Below, one piece after another: positions 1-63,624 of a stretch of 64,000 nucleotides of DNA. The notes beneath the pieces were generated by a model that was not told the DNA's origin, searched no databases, and saw only the letters and a program-made list of their open reading frames with translations. Positions within the stretch are counted from its first letter, which is position 1; each line of letters starts with the position of its first letter. Both the position numbers and the translations under genes were made by a program. The DNA is from an uncultured Gammaproteobacteria bacterium (lineage in GTDB: Bacteria; Patescibacteriota; Microgenomatia; Daviesbacterales; UBA10151): assembly GCA_964446685.1 (NCBI GenBank), contig CAYUPO010000001.1, positions 104,502 to 168,501 of the forward strand, written 5' to 3'.

Positions 1-159
1 TATCATATTTTCCCTGTCATTCTGATCCGCCAGCTGGCGGAGAAGAATCTCTGAACCGATTCGGCCTGAGGGCTCACGGTCTCGAAGACTTGTTTCAGAT
101 CTTAGACCTCGCATTCGCGAGAGATCCTTCACTTCGTTCAGGATAACATGCTCCAGCCC
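1..159. repeat. cluster of palindromic elements downstream of purE (GTCATTCTG..., CCGCCAGCTGGCGG, and CTGAACCGATTCGG...CTTGTTTCAG copy at 51-98)
   Basis: 51-98 is nearly identical (2 indels) to 27965-28011 inside rarA. Confidence 0.6.
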
Positions 160-4171: not shown

Positions 4172-5278
4172 CTAACTCAGTATTAACTCAAGTTTATTTT
4201 GACCCACTGCCAGCTTGATTTCTTTTGCTACTCTTCTACCAACTGTAATCGGCTCACCGTATAAATATCCGGCATATGGGGTAGCTGAAATTCCCGGACT
4301 TCCCGGCATTCGGGGTGAAACATCAAAGACGACTATTTCTTTTTTTGGTGGACCAGGTAATATCATCGCCTGTAACCCAAATGGACCAATCACCCCTGGA
4401 TCTACATGTTTGGCTGCAGCGGCAACAAATCTTTCACCCATGGCAAATATATCTCCCAGTAAAGATTCTAAAACAGTGACTGCTATATGACCGGCTTCTT
4501 CGTATTTGACAGAAATACTTTGAATAACTTTTTCAATATCTACTCCAGGAATTTTGCTGAATCCTTCCAAATTAGTTTGTCTTCTGGTATCAGTGCCTGA
4601 GAGTTCAAGACGTTTAGTAATTGGAGAATAAAAATAATTAAAATTAACCTGTACCCCAACCAGAAACTCTTCAATCACTACTTTTTTAAGTTGCTCCTCT
4701 GTAAAATCTCCTCTTTCAAGTCTTAGTTCAACTTCTGACTGAAATTCTTTATAAGATGAGACAGTGAAAAAAGATCTTTCAAACCCTCTTTCCTGTTCCA
4801 GTACTTTGACCAGACATAATCTATCTATTTTTTTAGGATCGGTAAATTGTTTAGGGTAGCGAATTTTAGCTGCATCCAGTAAGTCATATTGATTTGGTTT
4901 GACTCCCCGTTCTTCAGTTTTGAGTAAAAATTTATTTCCAAACATCGGAACTTTAAACTTCTTTTCAATCGATGGATAGTCATTGAGATAGACCTCAAAT
5001 GATCTGTTGGGAACAAAGATGACATTTTTTTCTAACAGTTTTTTTTGAATATCAGGATTTAAAATATCTTTAAATTTTTCCAGTTCTAAAACCTCATCTA
5101 CACAACCTAATTCACCATTAGTTTTATAATGTTTACTGTAGACATCACCTCGGCCTTTTTGAGTAATAACCAGTGTTTTAAATCCTTCATCTTTGGCCCC
5201 TCTGGCAACATCTAAGGCAGAATGAGAACCAATAGAAGCAACTGTGATGTTTTGGCTGGTGTAAGATTTAAGATTCAT
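4172..5278 (-). CDS. purP: 5-formaminoimidazole-4-carboxamide ribonucleotide synthetase, archaeal-type (PurP), paralog 1
   Basis: 368 aa; N-terminal IGSHSALDV..GAKDEGF motif and ATP-grasp body match archaeal PurP. Confidence 0.7.
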   Translation of the reverse strand: MNLKSYTSQNITVASIGSHSALDVARGAKDEGFKTLVITQKGRGDVYSKHYKTNGELGCVDEVLELEKFKDILNPDIQKKLLEKNVIFVPNRSFEVYLNDYPSIEKKFKVPMFGNKFLLKTEERGVKPNQYDLLDAAKIRYPKQFTDPKKIDRLCLVKVLEQERGFERSFFTVSSYKEFQSEVELRLERGDFTEEQLKKVVIEEFLVGVQVNFNYFYSPITKRLELSGTDTRRQTNLEGFSKIPGVDIEKVIQSISVKYEEAGHIAVTVLESLLGDIFAMGERFVAAAAKHVDPGVIGPFGLQAMILPGPPKKEIVVFDVSPRMPGSPGISATPYAGYLYGEPITVGRRVAKEIKLAVGQNKLELILS

Positions 5279-5291
5279 GATTTACTAATTA

Positions 5292-5615
5292 TCAACTGCC
5301 CCCTACATCTGTCATTCTGGCTTGTCCAGAATCAAACAAAGTAGTATACAAATCGACCATTTCTGGATTCAAACTTTCTATCATTTTAAGTTTATTATCC
5401 CTATTCATATTTTTTATTTGTTTTTCCCGGATAATTCCTTCTATCTGTCCTTCAACAACTTCATAGTACAAAAGCTTATGCAAATGATACTTCCTAGTAA
5501 ATCCATCTACCAATTCTTCTTTATGCTCAGTAACTCTTTTTATTAAGTCACTTGTGACACCTGTATACAATGTAGGTCTATTATTACCCATAATGTAAAC
5601 ATACATCTGTTTCAT
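5292..5615 (-). CDS. GIY-YIG nuclease family protein (COG2827/YhbQ-like URI domain)
   Basis: 107 aa; YVYIMGNNRPTLYTGVTSDLIKRVTEH = GIY-YIG core; bracketed by inverted repeats 5311-5333 / 5624-5690. Confidence 0.7.
   Translation of the reverse strand: MKQMYVYIMGNNRPTLYTGVTSDLIKRVTEHKEELVDGFTRKYHLHKLLYYEVVEGQIEGIIREKQIKNMNRDNKLKMIESLNPEMVDLYTTLFDSGQARMTDVGGS
5311..5333. repeat. left inverted repeat flanking GIY-YIG gene 1 (GTCATTCTGGCTTGTCCAGAATC)
   Basis: reverse-complement halves found at 5624-5635 and 5680-5690. Confidence 0.65.
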
Positions 5616-5623
5616 CTTGTTTA

Positions 5624-5690
5624 GATTCTGGACAGATATTTTTAAGGCTAAGTTAATTCCAATCTAAACAATTAAGGTAGCCAGAATGAC
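5624..5690. repeat. right inverted repeat flanking GIY-YIG gene 1 (GATTCTGGACAG ... GCCAGAATGAC)
   Basis: RC of the left-repeat halves, split by a ~44-bp spacer. Confidence 0.6.
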
Positions 5691-5696
5691 AAATGG

Positions 5697-6725
5697 TTAA
5701 TTTAATATAAGTTCAAGTTTTTTCTGTTCGATAGCCCTCTTGATCTCTCTGGCTATTCTTCTTCCGGTACTCATTGGTTCATCATAATTTAAATCAGAAT
5801 AAGAGCTGCCATTGGTAAACAAATTAGTTCCGGCGACTATCCGGCAGGAAATTTCCATCGCCACAAATTTTTGATCTGGTGTTATAACAGTTTCCAAGCA
5901 AAATGGACCAAACAAGCCTTTTTTATCGATTAATTCTTTTGATGAACGAATAACTGACTCTCCCATAGCATAAGCTTCAGGTAAAAGGGATTCTCTTAGT
6001 ACTAGTGGACTATTGCCTACAACAACATAGCTTGGATCAATGTCTAATCCTTCCTGTCCGTGAAGCGGGATTCTGCCTAATCCATCAACATTGGTTTCAT
6101 ATCGTCTGTCCATCGACATTATTTCTATTTCTCCTGTCAGTGGAGAATGGAAGTAATGAATATAAAGTGTTACACCAATTACATATTCCTGAATAATAAA
6201 TTCATCAGTTTTGAGACTTTTTATTTTTTTAAGGAAATCTTCTTTATCACGAGCATAAAAATAACCTTTTCCTCCAGCTGCACCATATGTTTTTACAATT
6301 ACCGGATAGGTCACATCATCTAAATCATCAAATTGTTTTGGCATTGGTATTCTGGCATGAAGCAACCACTCCCTTTGCATTCCTCTATCCCCTTCCCAGT
6401 CCAGGACAGCTTTATTACCAAAATAAGGAATAGACAATTTTTTGTTGTTTTCAGTACCAAGATAAGCCACAAATGAACCATGAGGAACTAAAATGATATT
6501 TTGTTTAAGAAGCTGCTTTTCAACTTTTTTAAACTGACTAAAATGAGGAACAGTTAAAATAGTATCGATAAATTTAAACCGCTTGTAGAAAGACTCCCTT
6601 TCATGGGTCGTAACAATCAGTGTTTTAAAACCTTCTTGTTTAGCTCCATGCAGAATCTGAAGAGAAGAATGCGAACCCAAAGTTGCAATAGTGTAATCAC
6701 TAAATTTCATTGTATTGTGAAACAA
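5697..6725 (-). CDS. purP: archaeal-type FAICAR synthetase (PurP), paralog 2
   Basis: 342 aa; TLGSHSSLQILHGAKQEGF motif; ~40% identical to paralog 1 by eye, so an old duplication. Confidence 0.7.
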   Translation of the reverse strand: MFHNTMKFSDYTIATLGSHSSLQILHGAKQEGFKTLIVTTHERESFYKRFKFIDTILTVPHFSQFKKVEKQLLKQNIILVPHGSFVAYLGTENNKKLSIPYFGNKAVLDWEGDRGMQREWLLHARIPMPKQFDDLDDVTYPVIVKTYGAAGGKGYFYARDKEDFLKKIKSLKTDEFIIQEYVIGVTLYIHYFHSPLTGEIEIMSMDRRYETNVDGLGRIPLHGQEGLDIDPSYVVVGNSPLVLRESLLPEAYAMGESVIRSSKELIDKKGLFGPFCLETVITPDQKFVAMEISCRIVAGTNLFTNGSSYSDLNYDEPMSTGRRIAREIKRAIEQKKLELILN

Positions 6726-7424: not shown

Positions 7425-8996
7425 TTATTCCCATTCCATAGTTGCGGGAGGCTTTGTTGTTATATCATAAACTACTCTATTAACTTCTGTTACTTCGGTT
7501 ACTATTCTGTTTGAAATTTTCATTAATAATTCAAATGGTAAATTAGCTACATCTGCACTCATGGCATCTTTAGCATCCAGAGCTCTTAAGGCAATTGTTT
7601 CTCCATAAACTCTTTGATCACCTCTGACACCGGTTGTTTTGATGTTTGTAAAAATAGCAAAAGCCTGCCAGAGTTTGTCCTGCAATTTGGCTTTTAAAAT
7701 CTCTTCCTGGACTATAAAATCCGCTTGCCTTAAAATCTCTAAATTATAGTCAGTGACAGCTCCAATGATTCTAACTGCAAGGCCTGGACCTGGGAATGGC
7801 TGTCTTTTAACCACTGAATCCGGCATTCCCAGCAATTTACCAACCTGTCTGACTTGATCTTTATAAAAAAGCCGCAAAGGCTCAATTAGGGCCAGTTTCA
7901 TGACTTCTGGTAGCCCACCAACATTGTGATGGGACTTTATATTCTGAGAATGTTTGGTTCCCTGACTTTCTATCACATCTGGATAAATTGTGCCCTGGAC
8001 TAGAAATGTGGCACCAATCTTTTTGGCTTCTCTGTCAAAGATATCTATGAATGTTTTACCAATAATTTTTCTTTTGGTTTCCGGATCAACTACTCCTTTT
8101 AAGGCAGATAGAAATTCTTTTTTGGCATTAATGATCTGCACTTTCATGTGATAATGGTCTTTAAAAACTTTTTTCAAAACATCAGTTTCTCCTTTTCGCA
8201 TTAGTCCTGAATCAATATAAAAAGAAGTAAGCTTGGTTCCGATTGCCCGATGAACTAAGAGAGCAGCAACTGATGAATCGACTCCGCCGGATAAAGCGCA
8301 GATCGCTTTTTCATTACCAACCGACTCTTTAATATCTTCAATCATTTCAGCTACATATTTTTTATTTAAGGGAGATAACTCTGGTTTTAAACCACAGATT
8401 TTTAGAAAGTTGGATAAAATTGTTTCACCAAATTGGGTATGCACTAACTCTGGATGAAACTGAATACCAAAAAGTTTTCTTTTTTCATCTGACATAGCAG
8501 CCACAGGAATAGTTTTGGTAGTGGCATTTGTGACAAATCCTTTTGGTGGTTTCATTACTGAATCTCCATGCGACATCCAGACATTAAATTCCTCAGATGT
8601 TCCTTCAAATAAAGAATTTGCTTTTGATACCTTTCCTACATTTGATACCTTTAAATTAGCTGGCCCATACTCCCGTATTTTCCCTGGTTTTACATCTCCT
8701 TTTAAAAGGTGTGCCATCAGTTGCTGCCCATAACAAATCCCTAAAATTGGAATACCTAATTTAAATACCTCTTCAGAAATAGTTGGACTATCTTTTTCAT
8801 AAACAGAAGACGGCCCTCCTGAAAAAATAATCCCCATAACGTCATTCCCGCGACCTGTACTGAGCGAAGTCGAAGTAAAGCGGGAATCTAAATCAATATT
8901 CTCTGGCAAAATAATTTTTGTCTTCACCCCAAATTCATTTATTCTCCGGGAAATCAGATGTGTTGATTGTGAACCAAAATCGATAATTATTATCAT
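7425..8996 (-). CDS. guaA: GMP synthase, glutamine-hydrolysing (GuaA), carrying a 48-bp in-frame palindromic-element insertion
   Basis: 523 aa; GATase CYGQQ, FHPE, PP-loop SGGVDSSV; extra DSRFTSTSLSTGRGND encoded by repeat at 8841-8888. Confidence 0.9.
   Translation of the reverse strand: MIIIIDFGSQSTHLISRRINEFGVKTKIILPENIDLDSRFTSTSLSTGRGNDVMGIIFSGGPSSVYEKDSPTISEEVFKLGIPILGICYGQQLMAHLLKGDVKPGKIREYGPANLKVSNVGKVSKANSLFEGTSEEFNVWMSHGDSVMKPPKGFVTNATTKTIPVAAMSDEKRKLFGIQFHPELVHTQFGETILSNFLKICGLKPELSPLNKKYVAEMIEDIKESVGNEKAICALSGGVDSSVAALLVHRAIGTKLTSFYIDSGLMRKGETDVLKKVFKDHYHMKVQIINAKKEFLSALKGVVDPETKRKIIGKTFIDIFDREAKKIGATFLVQGTIYPDVIESQGTKHSQNIKSHHNVGGLPEVMKLALIEPLRLFYKDQVRQVGKLLGMPDSVVKRQPFPGPGLAVRIIGAVTDYNLEILRQADFIVQEEILKAKLQDKLWQAFAIFTNIKTTGVRGDQRVYGETIALRALDAKDAMSADVANLPFELLMKISNRIVTEVTEVNRVVYDITTKPPATMEWE
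8841..8888. mobile_element. 48-bp palindromic element inserted in-frame in guaA
   Basis: GTCATTCCCGCG...CTGAGCGAAGTCGAAG...GCGGGAATC; exactly 16 codons. Confidence 0.7.
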
Positions 8997-14239: not shown

Positions 14240-14292
14240 GAAGATATACCTATTCTACAGATTGCTGTAACTAAGTCAAGGGCAACAAGTGG

Positions 14293-14340
14293 ATTAATTT
14301 GAAATTTGAAATTAGAAATTAGAAATTAGAAATTTAAATT
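14293..14340. repeat. AT-rich tandem heptamers (GAAATTA/TTTCTAA x5) just downstream of the pgi stop
   Basis: read directly. Confidence 0.6.
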
Positions 14341-26504: not shown

Positions 26505-27146
26505 ATGAGATCTGATTCAGAGAAACAGCTTGAGAAAGTTACAAGTATGCTCGAAAAACAACGGCGTGAAGCTTTATTGTTGGCCTTTCGAGCAGAAGAA
26601 GCTAGACAATTATTGCTAAATGGAACATTTTCACCTGACAAATTAATAAACGAATTAATAGGTGATCTAAATCATTTTGGTACGGTTGAGCACAGAGGTC
26701 ATGCAGTGGTAGATTTCAAAGAGATAGCTCGCCGTTTGGAGGGATCATCTGTAATAAATACTGAGATTCCGGAAGACAGAATAGTTTCTGCAGGCCCTTA
26801 TAGTTTAAATGCAACTACAAGATTACTCACGATTAGTGGCCCTTATAAAGCCATTAATTTAGGATCAAATCAAGAAATAGTAAAAAAGCTGGATAATATC
26901 CCAACCCGTCTTTTAGAAATACTTATGGTAAATGCTGGAAGAATTGTGCCTTATATAAGTATGGAAGACTGGGGATGGCAAGATGATGGGTTTGATCACA
27001 GATTGCATATATCTCCTTATATGAGCCATATCAGAAATGCAGTTTTGGATTCAAAAAATCCTAAAAATCCTACCAGATTCAGACTGATAAATAATCACAT
27101 CCAGGCTGGTTATTCATTTGATTTTGACAATACTTTAAGAAGATAG
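26505..27146 (+). CDS. hypothetical protein
   Basis: 213 aa ORF. Confidence 0.4.
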   Translation: MRSDSEKQLEKVTSMLEKQRREALLLAFRAEEARQLLLNGTFSPDKLINELIGDLNHFGTVEHRGHAVVDFKEIARRLEGSSVINTEIPEDRIVSAGPYSLNATTRLLTISGPYKAINLGSNQEIVKKLDNIPTRLLEILMVNAGRIVPYISMEDWGWQDDGFDHRLHISPYMSHIRNAVLDSKNPKNPTRFRLINNHIQAGYSFDFDNTLRR

Positions 27147-27401: not shown

Positions 27402-28718
27402 TCAAGTAATTTTATTTTTTAGATATTTTTTATCTTTTAATTTATCAGGCAGTAAACTTTGATCTGTATACATTTCATAGCCTTTGCCGTATCCCACCTC
27501 TTTCATCAGCTTGGTTGGTGCATTTCTTAAGCTCATTGGTATAGGTAAATTGCCGTATTGTTTGACATCGGCCTGAGCTGCTCTGAATGCATCATAGGAT
27601 GTGCGGTCTTTTTTGGCAGATGCCAGATACACCACTCCATGAGCTAAATTAATACCACACTCTGGGTAGCCAATTGTTTCACAGGCTCTGAACACTTCAT
27701 TTGCCACAACCAAAGCTGTGGGTTGCGCCATACCAATATCTTCAGAAGCAAAGATCACCATTCTTCTGGCAATAAATAAAGGATCCTCCCCTGCTTCAAT
27801 CATTCTGGCTAAATAATAAAGAGCAGCATCAGGATTTGATGCCCGCATTGATTTGATAAAAGCTGAAATTGTATTGTAATGCTCTTCCCCGCCTTTGTCA
27901 TAAGCTAAAGCTTTGTGCTGGAGAGCCTCTTCAATAAGTTCTTTGGTGATTCTACCCTTGTCATGCTGAACCGATTCGGTCTGAGCCTCACGGTCGAAGA
28001 CTTGTTTCAGCATCTTCCCCTTGAATAAGTTCTCATTTTGATCAGCTTGAGAATTGGCAGATCCTGAAACAAGTTCAGGATGACAAAAATACGAAGCTAT
28101 TTCCAAAGTGTTCAAAATCATTCTGGCATCTCCGTTTGAATGTTCAATTAAAAATTCCTGAGCATCTTTAGCAATTTTTAGTTTTAAGTTTCCTAATCCT
28201 TTTTCTTTGTCTTTTAAAGCCCGGTTTATTAACTCTGAAATATCTTCCGGTTTTAGAGACTCTAATACAAACACTCTGGAACGGGATAACAACGGGGAAA
28301 TAATCTCAAAGCTGGGATTCTCAGTCGTCGCCCCAATCAGAGTGATTGTGCCATTTTCAACATATGATAAAAATGCATCCTGCTGGGCTTTATTAAAACG
28401 ATGAATTTCATCAATAAAAACAATAGTCTGCTTTTTTGAAAATAAAGTCCTTTGCCCTTTTAACTCTTCAAAGATTTTTTTCAGATCAGCTATTCCGGTA
28501 GTAACCGCTGAAAATTCCATAAAATCTGAATCTGTTTCATTGGCAATAATCCGGGCTAAGGTGGTTTTACCGACTCCCGGAGGACCCCAGAACATCATAG
28601 AAAAAATCCGGTTTTCTTTAATTGCGTTATAAAGCAGTTTACCAGGAGCTAAAATATGCTTTTGACCAACATAATCAGCGAGGGACTGCGGACGCATTCG
28701 GTCAGATAATGGAATCAT
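27402..28718 (-). CDS. rarA: replication-associated recombination protein A (RarA/MgsA AAA+ ATPase), carrying an in-frame palindromic-element insertion
   Basis: 438 aa; Walker [10 protein letters not shown], Walker B FIDEIH; repeat copy at 27965-28011 encodes [15 protein letters not shown]. Confidence 0.85.
27965..28011. mobile_element. palindromic element inserted in-frame in rarA
   Basis: GCTGAACCGATTCGGTCTGAGCCTCACGGTCGAAGACTTGTTTCAGC; paralog of 51-98. Confidence 0.65.
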
Positions 28719-35393: not shown

Positions 35394-35692
35394 CGTCATT
35401 CCAGCGAAAGTCATCGATTCTGAGGTCTAACGCCTCCACCTCCAGACTCGAAGAGCAGGCATCTGTAATAACAGGTTAGCAATTCATTAAATTTTCACCT
35501 AGTTATCAGAGAACAGATTCCCCTTTACAGGGGAATGACGTTTACTAGTTAATTATTAACTGACTTCCGGCCACAGCGGTAGTGGTTTCCGTCATTCCTG
35601 CGAAAGCAGGAATCTGTTATAACTGGAACTAACTAGGAAACTATTGAAACCCTGTATGAAAACAGCAGATTCCCCTTTTCAGGGGAATGACG
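35394..35692. repeat. array of at least four GTCATTCC-type palindromic elements in the folD-yjjX spacer
   Basis: 35516-35540, 35590-35616, 35666-35692 are clear hairpins (ATTCCCCT/AGGGGAAT, ATTCCTGC/GCAGGAAT); 35394-35430 is degenerate. Confidence 0.75.
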
Positions 35693-35697
35693 AATTT

Positions 35698-36243: not shown

Positions 36244-36415
36244 AGTTAAATTTCTAAGTACTAATTTCTAATTACTAAATAATGTCTAATGAATAAATTC
36301 TTGCTTCGCAATGAATAAATTCTTGCTTCGCAATGAATAAATGTCTAAAGAGTTTAGTCATTAGTATTTGGGATTTGTTTAGGAATTAGAAATTAGAGTA
36401 ATTAGAAATTTTTCT
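36244..36415. repeat. AT-rich spacer with inverted TTTCTAATT / AATTAGAAA heptamer arms plus a 23-bp direct repeat (AATGAATAAATTCTTGCTTCGCA x2)
   Basis: read directly. Confidence 0.6.
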
Positions 36416-40248: not shown

Positions 40249-40445
40249 ATGAGGATTCTTAGATTACCATAGTTCCACAGTAAAGGGTCAAGATAGAAGA
40301 ATAACTATGGAACAGATAGAAAGAGGTAAGTCCTGAGGAAATTTCTAATTTCTAATTACTAATTGACCTAAATAAATTCCAGTTTCTAAGAAGCTAAACT
40401 ACTTAAACATTATTTAGAAATTAGGTTAATTAGAAATTAGAAATT
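40249..40445. repeat. AT-rich spacer with inverted TTTCTAATTTCTAATTACTAATT / TTAGAAATTAGG..TTAGAAATTAGAAATT arms (dnaX-ybeY)
   Basis: read directly. Confidence 0.6.
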
Positions 40446-40859
40446 TTAATGTTGGTGTATTCCCAGGAGGTGGCTGGTGCCGTGTTCGACTAGCATTCGG
40501 ATCTCTTCTTCAACAGCAACTCCCTCAGCAACAGCATCTTTTTTGGCTTCCGGATAGGAAATGACAATATCACCCAGTCTGGTGATTTTATCCGGTGAGG
40601 GCACAAAACCCATTTTGCTAAGATGCATCACACCATTTTTTTGAGGTTGTTCATAGGGAAAAGAAAGAATATTTGTGGTGCTATCAATACCCCTATAAGT
40701 TTTGTTAATCTCGTGCATCTGATTGTCACCGACAATCGTAATACCTATTTCAATATTTCCATGGATCTGATGCCTTTTTAAGACCTCCATAGCAGCTGAC
40801 TGGACAGCGAATTTGTTAATTTCAAATTTTGTATCAGAATTGACAATAATATTAACCAT
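40446..40859 (-). CDS. ybeY: rRNA maturation endoribonuclease YbeY
   Basis: 137 aa; HGTSHLLGIHQH metal-binding H-box. Confidence 0.75.
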   Translation of the reverse strand: MVNIIVNSDTKFEINKFAVQSAAMEVLKRHQIHGNIEIGITIVGDNQMHEINKTYRGIDSTTNILSFPYEQPQKNGVMHLSKMGFVPSPDKITRLGDIVISYPEAKKDAVAEGVAVEEEIRMLVEHGTSHLLGIHQH

Positions 40860-41301: not shown

Positions 41302-41425
41302 AGTTAAAATTTCTAATCACTAATTGCACTAATTCCTAAATAAATCCAAAATCAGAATGTCTAAAAATTAGGATTTAGAAATTTAGTATTGTTTAGTAAT
41401 TAGAAATTAGTACTTAGACATTGCT
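41302..41425. repeat. AT-rich spacer with inverted TTTCTAAT / ATTAGAAA arms (yqeY-rpsU)
   Basis: read directly. Confidence 0.55.
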
Positions 41426-41866: not shown

Positions 41867-41882
41867 CTGAGCGAAGTCGAAG
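41867..41882. repeat. left IR of GIY-YIG gene 2 (CTGAGCGAAGTCGAAG)
   Basis: perfect RC at 42222-42237; the same 16-mer lies inside the guaA insert. Confidence 0.8.
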
Positions 41883-41928: not shown

Positions 41929-42198
41929 ATGAGTAGCTGGAAATGGTTTGTGTATATTTTAGAATGTCAGGATGGAAGTTATTACACTGGATTAAGTTAT
42001 AGATATGATCAGCGATATGAACAGCATTTATCTGGATTGGGAGGTAAATACACAGCTAACCATGGAGTTAAAAAATTAGTATATGTTGAGGAATATGATA
42101 ACTTCGAGGAAGCTAAGTTAAGAGAAAACCAGATCCATGGATGGACAAGAAAAAAGAAAGAAAACCTAATAATAGGCAAATGGACAAAATGGCAATAG
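41929..42198 (+). CDS. GIY-YIG nuclease family protein (COG2827/YhbQ-like), second copy
   Basis: 89 aa; WFVYILECQDGSYYTGLS...QH core; bracketed by perfect 16-bp inverted repeat CTGAGCGAAGTCGAAG (41867-41882 / 42222-42237). Confidence 0.7.
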   Translation: MSSWKWFVYILECQDGSYYTGLSYRYDQRYEQHLSGLGGKYTANHGVKKLVYVEEYDNFEEAKLRENQIHGWTRKKKENLIIGKWTKWQ

Positions 42199-42221: not shown

Positions 42222-42237
42222 CTTCGACTTCGCTCAG
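42222..42237. repeat. right IR of GIY-YIG gene 2 (CTTCGACTTCGCTCAG)
   Basis: perfect RC of 41867-41882. Confidence 0.8.
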
Positions 42238-47452: not shown

Positions 47453-47479
47453 CAGATTCCTGCTTTCGCAGGAATGACG
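47453..47479. repeat. palindromic element CAGATTCCTGCTTTCGCAGGAATGACG between tsf and frr
   Basis: same hairpin type as 35590-35616 and 51427-51450. Confidence 0.7.
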
Positions 47480-47495
47480 ATTGCAAAGGTTCAAA

Positions 47496-51373: not shown

Positions 51374-51450
51374 CGTCATTCCCCTGAAAAGGGGAATCTG
51401 TAAATACCTAAGAGTAGGCACCGCATATTCCTGCTTTCGCAGGAATGACG
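51374..51450. repeat. two palindromic elements between the thyA-family gene and dcd-like gene
   Basis: CGTCATTCCCCTGAAAAGGGGAATCTG and ATTCCTGCTTTCGCAGGAATGACG. Confidence 0.75.
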
Positions 51451-51452
51451 TT

Positions 51453-52127
51453 TTGACAAAAGAAAAACTTATGACACAAGGAATATTAACCAAACAACAA
51501 ATATTAGAATTGATTGAGTCAGAACAGCTCAAATTTTCCCCAGCAATTGATTCATTTCAGGTCCAATCACATTCCATCGATCTGCGACTCGGGTATTCAT
51601 TCATGATCCCTAAACTATGGTCTTTGACTGAGAAAGGACGCGAAGCCTTTTTGATTGATTATCTGGATGAAACTGAAAGATTTGAACTGGTTGAGCTGGA
51701 GCACAAACAATTTTTTGACCTTTTACCAAAAGAATCGGTTGTCGCTTCAACTCTTGAAGAAGTCTCCTTACCAGCTAATTTAATGGCTGTCCTCTACCCA
51801 CGTTCTTCTATTAATCGACGCGGCCTGTCTGTTGATCTTTCTGGTATTGTTGATGCCGGATATGAAGGAAGGTTGTTGATACCTATTACCAATAACACGC
51901 CACATGTAATCAGAATTTACCCAGGTGAAAGGTTTTGCCAGTTAGTATTTTATCCACTGTCTGAAGATATTAAGGTAGAACAAAGCAGATGGCATAAAAA
52001 GGATATTATTATAGGTAGACTCCCTGAAAAGAAAAAAGCTGAGGAAAAATATATTGTCTCTGGCGATATAAAAGGATTAAAACAAAAGTTTGCTCTGACT
52101 GCTCCTAAAACCAATGATTCAAAGTAA
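51453..52127 (+). CDS. dCTP deaminase / dUTPase-superfamily protein (Dcd-like)
   Basis: 224 aa; SIDLRLG, LYPRSS, GIVDAGYEGRL motifs; the position aligning to the Dcd catalytic Glu appears to be non-acidic. Confidence 0.6.
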   Translation: MTKEKLMTQGILTKQQILELIESEQLKFSPAIDSFQVQSHSIDLRLGYSFMIPKLWSLTEKGREAFLIDYLDETERFELVELEHKQFFDLLPKESVVASTLEEVSLPANLMAVLYPRSSINRRGLSVDLSGIVDAGYEGRLLIPITNNTPHVIRIYPGERFCQLVFYPLSEDIKVEQSRWHKKDIIIGRLPEKKKAEEKYIVSGDIKGLKQKFALTAPKTNDSK

Positions 52128-55398: not shown

Positions 55399-55403
55399 TT
55401 TTT

Positions 55404-55479
55404 GTCATCCCGAACTCGTTTCGGGATCTACCCTTTTGTATAACCTCGGCAGATGCTGAAACAAGTTCAGCATGACAAG
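55404..55479. repeat. two palindromic elements between mazG-like gene and pyrG (GTCATCCCGAACTCGTTTCGGGATC; GATGCTGAAACAAGTTCAGCATGAC)
   Basis: second one shares CTGAAACAAG with the 51-98 / 27965-28011 variant. Confidence 0.65.
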
Positions 55480-63456: not shown

Positions 63457-63489
63457 ATTATATAGTGTAGCAGGAAAAGAGGGTGGGAG

Positions 63490-63530
63490 TTAATTAGTTA
63501 ATTAGTTAATTAGTTAATTAGTTAATTAGT
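63490..63530. repeat. tandem octamer TTAATTAG x5 upstream of the Clp ATPase gene
   Basis: read directly. Confidence 0.8.
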
Positions 63531-63624
63531 GAACAGGTTATAAGCCAAGCATCTGTGCTAAAACTTTTTTGGTTGATTTAACTTTTAATCTGATTAACTA
63601 TTCTCTAGTTAACTGATTAACTCG

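Follow-up and report, generated by a model that had tools for sequence, protein, structure and literature searches.

An in-frame inverted dimer of tagged hairpin repeats in the linker of RarA from a Microgenomates bacterium

Results

An inserted hairpin dimer in rarA

The window, meaning the whole 64,000-nucleotide stretch analysed here (contig CAYUPO010000001.1, positions 104,502 to 168,501), comes from an uncultured bacterium of the Microgenomates, within the candidate phyla radiation (CPR). On its minus strand at 27402..28718 lies rarA (mgsA), an intact open reading frame (ORF) of 438 amino acids whose product we identified as RarA/MgsA by its match to E. coli RarA (3pvs, E = 3.6e-104). The gene is host to a 127-bp insertion (27959..28085), an inverted dimer of two TGTC-tagged hairpin units with their tags facing outward and their tails inward. 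A first-pass annotation had drawn attention to part of it, a 47-nucleotide string at 27965-28011 (+ strand) that runs through the minus-strand rarA ORF without breaking its frame. That observation was correct, but the 47-bp segment is not in itself the inserted entity and instead forms one unit of the dimer.

We aligned window RarA with 18 homologues (alignment A1) and found all AAA+ and MgsA_C blocks conserved; the orthologues carry the Pfam domains RuvB_N, AAA, AAA_assoc_2 and MgsA_C. The 15 closest orthologues (P0002-P0016), which are 78-88% identical to window RarA overall and up to 95% over aligned columns, are only ~395 amino acids long and have 40-42 residues fewer directly after the lid-domain helix LNTLEIA. 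Compared with the empty site of P0004 and P0005 (AAQYA/DKGK, the slash marking the junction), the insertion adds 40 codons and encodes residues H213-H252 together with the flanking C212 and D253. The empty site is equally visible in a DNA alignment with three syntenic loci (L001, L002 and L004), in which the flanks are collinear, and the alignment to E. coli RarA is interrupted at window residues 209/256, with 11 residues in E. coli versus 46 here. The GC content of the insertion is 45%, compared with 38% in the remainder of rarA. The orthologue alignment proposed in the first-pass annotation thus does reveal the indel, and its view that the segment is neither a product of convergent evolution nor an old part of the protein is borne out by the 15 empty orthologues and by further copies of the unit in other Microgenomates genomes, where the loci are unrelated.

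Mis-joined contigs can arise from short repeats, and many homologues of a nuclease gene described below lie on very short contigs, which raises the question of an assembly or chimera artefact arising from repeats. Such an origin is barely credible, as the reading frame is preserved exactly, the flanks are collinear with orthologous loci, a RarA that is 100% identical with the insertion included (P0001) comes from an independent Joint Genome Institute (JGI) metagenome, and analogous in-frame dimers occur in several independent assemblies.

In an AlphaFold2 model built from A1, residues 217-253 have pLDDT values below 50 (about 27-30 for the insertion) and lack secondary structure. This low-confidence stretch follows the lid helix (198-212) and precedes MgsA_C. 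The insertion is thus predicted to be disordered and to lie within a flexible linker joining the AAA+ lid domain to MgsA_C.

Anatomy of the dimer

Read along the coding strand, the insertion has the order TGTC-ATCCTGAA-CTTGT-TTCAGGAT-CTG, a 41-nucleotide spacer, and AAG-ATGCTGAA-ACAA[30 nt]G-TTCAGCAT-GACA. Unit A (28058..28085, - strand), which belongs to a repeat family that we call D4, is a canonical short unit comprising the tag TGTC, the stem ATCCTGAA/TTCAGGAT around a CTTGT loop and the tail CTG, and it encodes the peptide CHPELVSGS. The spacer (28017..28057) is also coding and varies in length among orthologues and elements, measuring 9 nucleotides in L005 and 10 in L016. Unit B (27959..28016, + strand), which contains the 47-bp segment, has its TGTC tag at 27959-27962, a stem formed by ATGCTGAA (27963-27970) and TTCAGCAT (28006-28013), a 35-nucleotide loop (27971-28005) and the tail CTT (28014-28016). 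Both stems are perfect, 8 bp long and AT-initiated. In copies from other genomes, both sides of the stem are altered together (ATCCTGAA, ATTCCGAA), such that pairing is preserved.

Most of the unit B loop consists of a 30-nucleotide stretch, CGATTCGGTCTGAGCCTCACGGTCGAAGAC (27972..28001, + strand), which is not present in a short unit located elsewhere in the window (55449-55479). As the short unit equals unit B minus these 30 internal bases, the stretch represents a loop module within what would otherwise be an ordinary short hairpin repeat. Seven further distinct copies, on different host stems, carry it in nearly invariant form. The segment had initially been described as a perfect-arm hairpin. 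This holds for the 8-bp stem, which extends one base past the originally annotated limits on each side, but not for the 35 nucleotides between the arms, which have no self-complementarity and remain unpaired. Folding of the segment does not stand out (z-scores of -1.8 for the + strand and -0.2 for the - strand) and rules out a long perfect palindrome, the 8-bp stem alone being perfect. We also considered and dropped a structured-RNA identity, as no Rfam family matched either the whole window at the gathering threshold or the interval 27900-28150 at E values up to 1.

A related copy downstream of purE

The first-pass annotation had also pointed to a nearly identical copy at 51-98. A related copy does exist there, downstream of purE (confirmed as AIRC, 9.3e-69), with 43 of 47 aligned positions identical and with exact 14-mer and 17-mer blocks common to both copies. 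The difference between them is not two 1-bp indels, as first described, but two internal substitutions and two terminal mismatches, plus one 1-nucleotide and one 2-nucleotide indel. Shuffled versions of the window yielded no matches with up to three mismatches, indicating that the likeness of the two copies is far above chance.

This copy forms part of a degenerate composite dimer (15..148) made up of a tagged hairpin (15-51), a module-bearing unit without an adjacent tag of its own (51-102), a short spacer hairpin and a decayed partner (122-148). The partner unit, a D4 member (119-149), is 68% identical to the partner unit in rarA. The displaced tag and this diverged partner mark 51-98 as the more degenerate of the two copies, and no feature identifies it as the source of the rarA insertion. 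It lies 50 nucleotides from the window edge, where + frame 3 runs without a stop from base 3 until about 146; no ORF lying wholly in the window contains it, and stops occur on both sides in the rarA reading frame.

Copies in other genomes

To locate further copies, we scanned two sequence collections for the module with its stem edges, using the pattern GAACCGATTCGGN{10,24}TCGAAGACTTG, whose exact 12- and 11-nucleotide anchors bias the scan towards conserved copies. After removal of duplicates, six further loci had a module-bearing unit, from Gottesmanbacteria, Curtissbacteria and metagenome contigs. Four of these were intergenic (L008; L009/L011/L015/L018, from Curtissbacteria; L013; and L020). 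The other two were genic, one within a 703-amino-acid membrane protein of Gottesmanbacteria (L010/L016) and one within LepA of Curtissbacteria (L012/L019), where the insertion reads ILNQVFDRESQTESVQDDK. A match in a relA/spoT-like gene of a Hyphomicrobiales metagenome-assembled genome (L017) was discarded as chance.

Across these copies, the module is almost invariant (CGATTCGGTCTGAG[A/C]CT[C/T]ACGGTCGAAGAC), while the host stems differ with pairing kept. The LepA and membrane-protein copies share the reading frame used in RarA (QVFDRExQTESVQ). The unit is free of stops in three of the six reading frames, and the frame tabulation of genic copies suggested at first pass showed that all three use the same one, on one strand, yielding a polar peptide. 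The partner unit in the Gottesmanbacteria protein is, as in rarA, ATCCTGAA-stemmed, from which it appears that the whole heterodimer is the repeated entity.

Two further observations concern these loci. The membrane protein in L010/L016 carries a second repeat-derived insertion, NNVIPVKTGIQSLKDGSRVTFAKLSVNKPGMTIE, beside the module-bearing dimer. In L007, recR is split into two short called genes (496-1064); we rejected a repeat insertion as the reason, the split being a frameshift without a hairpin unit, and the gene is likely to be a pseudogene or to reflect an assembly error.

The RarA linker is repeatedly occupied

To place window RarA among its relatives, we compared 116 Microgenomates-like RarA orthologues, 33 of which had a long linker. 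Repeat-type peptides were common in these long linkers, including HPELVSGS...MPKQVRHDK, VILNSFQDP, VIPAKAGI, CHSERSEES and VIARTDTTKQS. Parsimony on a neighbour-joining tree required at least 18 gain or loss changes of the occupied state with an empty root, a rough count given that the tree was a quick distance tree. On the same tree, window RarA is nested in a clade that is otherwise entirely empty; that its nearest neighbours are empty can be read from the identity values as well, without the tree. The presence of the insertion is thus specific to its lineage.

We inspected the DNA of four occupied orthologues and found intact tagged dimers in each, with stems, spacers and even reading frames differing between them. 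One of these has a different loop insert, carried by the other unit and in the opposite orientation. The right junction, ATGAC/AAR, is identical in all four cases, with a possible overlap with a native GAY-AAR codon pair, which empty sites have too. Collectively, these findings establish the RarA linker as a permissive site that has been occupied repeatedly.

The alternative that the segment is ancestral to the RarA linker and was lost in relatives, with the intergenic copy derived from the gene, draws on five distant orthologues (P0018, P0022, P0034, P0039 and P0111) that have HPELVSGS...MPKQVRHDK-type peptides at exactly the same position and with the ATGAC/AAR junction. It is nonetheless very improbable, given that window RarA is nested among 15 empty orthologues on a tree with an empty root and at least 18 changes, that the occupants are unlike in stem, loop, spacer and frame, that other genomes carry the unit between genes and in genes unrelated to rarA, and that the window itself holds a dozen related units.

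The first-pass annotation went further, proposing that a mobile element had been co-opted as peptide-coding sequence. A dispersed repeat does lie within the RarA ORF, but co-option in the sense of a role in RarA function, such as a novel loop for interaction or regulation, is in our view unlikely. Several observations would fit it: the ORF is unbroken, neither hairpin unit has decayed, the identical allele occurs in a second sample, repeat insertions recur at the linker in many Microgenomates, all genic copies use the same polar frame, and intragenic copies of comparable repeats often lie in replication and repair genes (PMC3733652). Against this, the segment is predicted with very low confidence and as disordered, in a highly variable linker, and is not found in the 15 nearest orthologues; occupants of the site vary among orthologues in repeat subtype, length and even frame; and the same peptide occurs in the unrelated LepA and membrane protein, as would fit a passenger constrained only against stop codons.

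Repeat-like sequences also occur elsewhere in RarA orthologues. At a second site, between the Walker A region and the Walker B strand (A1 columns 90-140), repeat-like insertions are present in P0021, P0034, P0041 and P0092; window RarA has none there. The linkers of P0067, P0087, P0099 and P0120 contain a proline- and glycine-rich repeat-like peptide (PLPSPLPPERG...SPLRERARERG, PSPLLKGEG...SPLREKVRMRG), suggesting that a second, GC-rich repeat family uses the linker site too.

A family of tagged units across the window

A scan of the window for hairpins of the form GTC-AT-stem...stem-AT-C found 12 tagged units, compared with 0.9 expected from shuffled sequences, and thus a repeat family. Most are in inverted pairs, intergenic and near gene ends. 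These include an inverted dimer downstream of pyrG (55403..55479), in which the unit at 55449-55479 (TGTCATGCTGAACTTGTTTCAGCATCTG) is unit B without its loop module; an inverted dimer of CGTC units with 4-nucleotide loops between thyA and dcd (51374..51453); and two successive intergenic inverted dimers (35396..35695), the first unit of which (35396-35455) contains a related loop insert, CGATTCTGAG...CTCGAAGA. Two units are single. One CGTC unit (47453..47482, - strand) lies directly upstream of the probable true start of frr, and another (8840..8890, + strand) lies in frame within guaA (ORF 7425..8996, - strand), where it encodes DSRFTSTSLSTGRGND and coincides with a 10-residue gap in 7sbc, the solved GMP synthase that matches best. 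This guaA unit shares its arms with the Neisseria repeat NTS and has a 28-nucleotide loop with the 16-mer CTGAGCGAAGTCGAAG. It is probably the insertion that the first-pass annotation had counted as the first.

Between cmk and rarA, on the opposite strand, lies a 213-amino-acid ORF without a Pfam match (26505-27146, +); in L001, L002 and L004 this interval contains just one same-strand ORF of 77-88 amino acids. Several intergenic regions share short tandem motifs rich in AT, such as TTAGAAA and AGTTAATT, that have no relation to the hairpin units; they lie at 14291-14339, 36354-36396, 40428-40450, 41368-41422 and 63488-63535.

Small GIY-YIG nuclease genes flanked by repeats

The window also contains a gene for a small nuclease-like protein with tagged units on both sides. 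The gene (5292..5615, - strand) encodes 107 amino acids with a single GIY-YIG domain (PF01541, 5.4e-11 over residues 4-76), and we refer to it as ssn-like after the Ssn nucleases discussed below. Its two flanking units, in inverted orientation, are TGTC-tagged and share the stem ATTCTGG. The unit on the 3' side (5310..5335, + strand) has a CTTGT loop and encodes the C-terminal residues DSGQARMT of the protein, and that on the 5' side (5622..5691, - strand) has an expanded loop of 50 nucleotides. The TGTC tag and CTTGT loop are as in the rarA subfamily; the stem is different. A 69%-identical homologue in a Daviesbacteria locus (L024) has a like arrangement, with the same stem, a 22-nucleotide loop in the upstream unit and a short downstream unit.

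The protein has 685 homologues, mostly from CPR bacteria, a weak match to the UPF0213 structure 1zg2 (E = 0.03) and no NCBIfam match. Its close homologues are mostly on very short contigs (0.5-2 kb), a pattern to be anticipated if metagenome assemblies break at the gene and its flanking repeats. We found no further GIY-YIG genes in roughly 200 kb of loci from other genomes, and the association of nuclease and repeats in CPR bacteria consequently rests on the window and L024. Pfam scans of window ORFs of at least 120 amino acids identified no Y1_Tnp, RAYT or other transposase, the other ORFs being housekeeping genes, and among ORFs of that size we therefore rejected a RAYT or other transposase as the agent within the window.

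The ssn-like gene and its two units lie between two DUF1246/DUF1297 paralogues (4172..5278 and 5697..6725), which we take to be PurP-like, archaeal-type enzymes of purine synthesis. The surroundings are a purine-biosynthesis cluster (purE, purK, purB, purL-like and guaA).

The window's other small GIY-YIG gene belongs to the UPF0213 type (41929..42198, + strand; 1zg2, 5.5e-15) and is bracketed by inverted copies of CTGAGCGAAGTCGAAG at 41867..41882 (+) and 42222..42237 (-). Exact copies of this 16-mer number three in the window, compared with 0.18 expected, and the sole other copy is in the loop of the guaA unit. This arrangement suggests that the UPF0213-type gene and CTGAGCGAAGTCGAAG form a second nuclease-repeat pair, nested in the first.

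Discussion

A model for the rarA insertion

Taken together, our analyses indicate that the rarA insertion is very probably a repeat-element insertion, namely an inverted dimer of the CGTC/TGTC-tagged repetitive extragenic palindromic (REP) superfamily, to which Ssn-related motifs (SRMs) belong, in a layout like that of REPINs. The dimer would have entered rarA among the codons of the flexible linker that joins the AAA+ lid to MgsA_C. Its persistence could be explained by a length that keeps the frame, a strand and frame free of stops, a polar peptide and a disordered linker of variable length. With frame, absence of stops, polarity and a permissive site all accounted for in this way, the encoded peptide is most likely a tolerated, neutral passenger, not a new functional domain.

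The distribution of the units suggests that they are mobile. By analogy with the Ssn systems, the hairpins may form in single-stranded DNA and be recognised by a small GIY-YIG Ssn nuclease, which would cleave the DNA a few nucleotides 5' of the tag. In a dimer, cleavage would then fall at the two outer edges, on opposite strands, and this could account for both spread and clean loss. The ssn-like nuclease (5292..5615) would be the most plausible agent of both processes, although for mobilisation of repeats by such a nuclease, a hypothesis drawn from this analogy, we see somewhat less than an even chance.

Alternatively, the element may act at the DNA or RNA level, either as an Ssn target that modulates recombination or uptake or as an mRNA hairpin affecting translation or stability, with the peptide being incidental. 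NTS beside genes lower transformation in Neisseria via SsnA (PMC11893778), a dimer offers one cleavable strand on each side of the insertion, and the perfect stems and tags of both units could mean maintenance. However, the folding energies are unexceptional, Rfam gave no match and a recent insertion explains the intact stems equally well, which leaves a role of this kind improbable.

The loop module of unit B adds a further layer. It holds the series CTGAGC-CTCACG-GTCGAAG, which on inspection of the sequences appears related to CTGAGCGAAGTCGAAG. The 30-nucleotide module might accordingly be a second recognition element, making the insertion a nested composite of two nuclease-repeat systems, a tentative suggestion that we consider rather doubtful. 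If it were true, nucleases in CPR bacteria would still be driving insertion and excision, with the 18 or more gains or losses at the RarA linker as their traces, and the locus would provide both a candidate mobilising enzyme for CGTC REPs and a natural test system.

Comparison with known repeat systems

CGTC-tagged REPs have an unpaired CGTC tag, often TGTC or CCTC (Di Nocera, De Gregorio & Rocco 2013, PMC3733652). Their stems are 8-9 bp with A-T pairs at positions 1-2, their loops are 4-5 nucleotides, and an unpaired 3-nucleotide tail, mostly CCA, follows (PMC3733652). They are found mainly as inverted dimers with spacers of 20-100 bp, mostly in intergenic regions near gene 3' ends, but some are in frame within genes, often those for replication and repair, where they encode 20-30 or more residues (PMC3733652). 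The units described here resemble them in their tags (TGTC at 27959-27962 on the + strand and 28085-28082 on the - strand, CGTC or TGTC on all other units), in the 8-bp, AT-initiated perfect stems of both rarA units and in their repetition, mostly as inverted dimers (27959-28085, 35396-35695, 51374-51453 and 55403-55479). Loops of the usual size are found in unit A (CTTGT) and in the module-free unit at 55449-55479. The host, by contrast, is a Microgenomates bacterium, from a group unsampled in the 2013 survey, and units flank a GIY-YIG gene here, whereas no associated transposase or other enzyme gene was reported for CGTC REPs (PMC3733652).

A second point of comparison is the Neisseria NTS (consensus CGTCATTCCCGCGMAVGCGGGAATCYRG), which SsnA, a 94-amino-acid, single-domain GIY-YIG nuclease specific for single-stranded DNA, binds in single-stranded form and cleaves a few nucleotides upstream of the motif (Chenal et al. 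2025, PMC11893778). SRMs lie near 71% of ssnA homologues, and the motif-ssnA-motif arrangement resembles an insertion sequence (PMC11893778). When flanking genes, NTS lower transformation through SsnA; they are rarely intragenic in Neisseria (2%), and CPR bacteria are absent from the main text of that study (PMC11893778). The window shares with this system the tagged hairpin, with NTS arms identical to those of the guaA unit; the motif-ssn-motif layout, at 5310-5691 and in L024; and a single-domain GIY-YIG protein of about 100 amino acids, here a predicted nuclease and a candidate member of the Ssn family (cd10448). The published SRM search string, HGTCWYN(0-2)YYVSBRHN(0-5)WNVSBRGN(0-2)RNCYNB, matches the window at 35513, 35665 and 51374 (three matches versus 0.09 expected); the units flanking the ssn-like gene fail it.

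Several points weigh against assigning the rarA insertion to this superfamily and against its spread by an Ssn nuclease. The rarA units also fail to match the published string, and literal SRM membership was therefore rejected. The loop of unit B, at 35 nucleotides with a conserved 30-nucleotide module, exceeds the 4-5 nucleotides of CGTC REPs, and the tails, though conserved, read CTG or CTT instead of the commonest CCA. The module-bearing unit is present in one or two copies per genome, as counted in the exact-anchor scan, outside which the window's own genome fell. The frame preference of genic copies is suggestive at about p = 0.1, there being three such copies, and the translation of the insertion was deduced from the intact ORF. 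We know of no strand-transfer, joining or transposition chemistry for Ssn or other GIY-YIG nucleases. In the literature, too, the mobilisation of repeats by Ssn is a hypothesis (PMC11893778).

The locus also recalls the palindromic repeats of Rickettsia, from which insertions in housekeeping genes are mainly known. Ogata and colleagues reportedly found, in 2000, Rickettsia palindromic elements of the RPE-1 type in frame in many housekeeping genes. Such RPE-1 elements are single palindromes of about 100-150 bp, tolerated at surface or linker positions and with a preferred reading frame. On the basis of these descriptions, the rarA insertion is like them in being an in-frame palindromic repeat at a linker position of a housekeeping gene, and differs in being a dimer of short tagged hairpins and not a single longer palindrome. 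The comparison with RPEs made in the first-pass annotation proved sound, as RPE-4 and RPE-6 of R. conorii have been equated with CGTC-4 and CGTC-1, members of the superfamily that these units match, and Neisseria dRS3 is likewise of the CGTC type (PMC3733652).

REPINs, which are associated with RAYT transposases, are described as doublets of GTAG-tagged REPs (Bertels & Rainey 2011, as cited in PMC3733652). As far as that account goes, the present system is similar in that two short, tagged hairpins are inverted as one repeat and a single-copy enzyme gene is flanked by hairpins. It differs in its (C/T)GTC tag and in having, among window ORFs of at least 120 amino acids, no Y1/HUH transposase, the flanked gene being of the GIY-YIG type instead.

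The enzyme responsible for spreading CGTC-type repeats has been in question since 2013, with Ssn nucleases as no more than a candidate since 2025. Our targeted literature searches found nothing directly relevant on GIY-YIG proteins with REP or CGTC repeats, or on palindromic elements in CPR bacteria. To these lines of work the locus adds that the same class of repeats is probably active in the CPR, that a loop-expanded variant is common to Microgenomates lineages and that an ssn-like gene lies nearby. For annotation, repeat-derived strings such as DSRFRGND in CPR proteins can mislead homology searches, domain boundaries and gene calls. Hairpin repeats of this kind are already known from Rickettsia and Neisseria, and the phenomenon as such is not new; what is new here is the CPR host, the conserved loop module, a RarA linker occupied time after time and a hint that a second nuclease-repeat pair exists.

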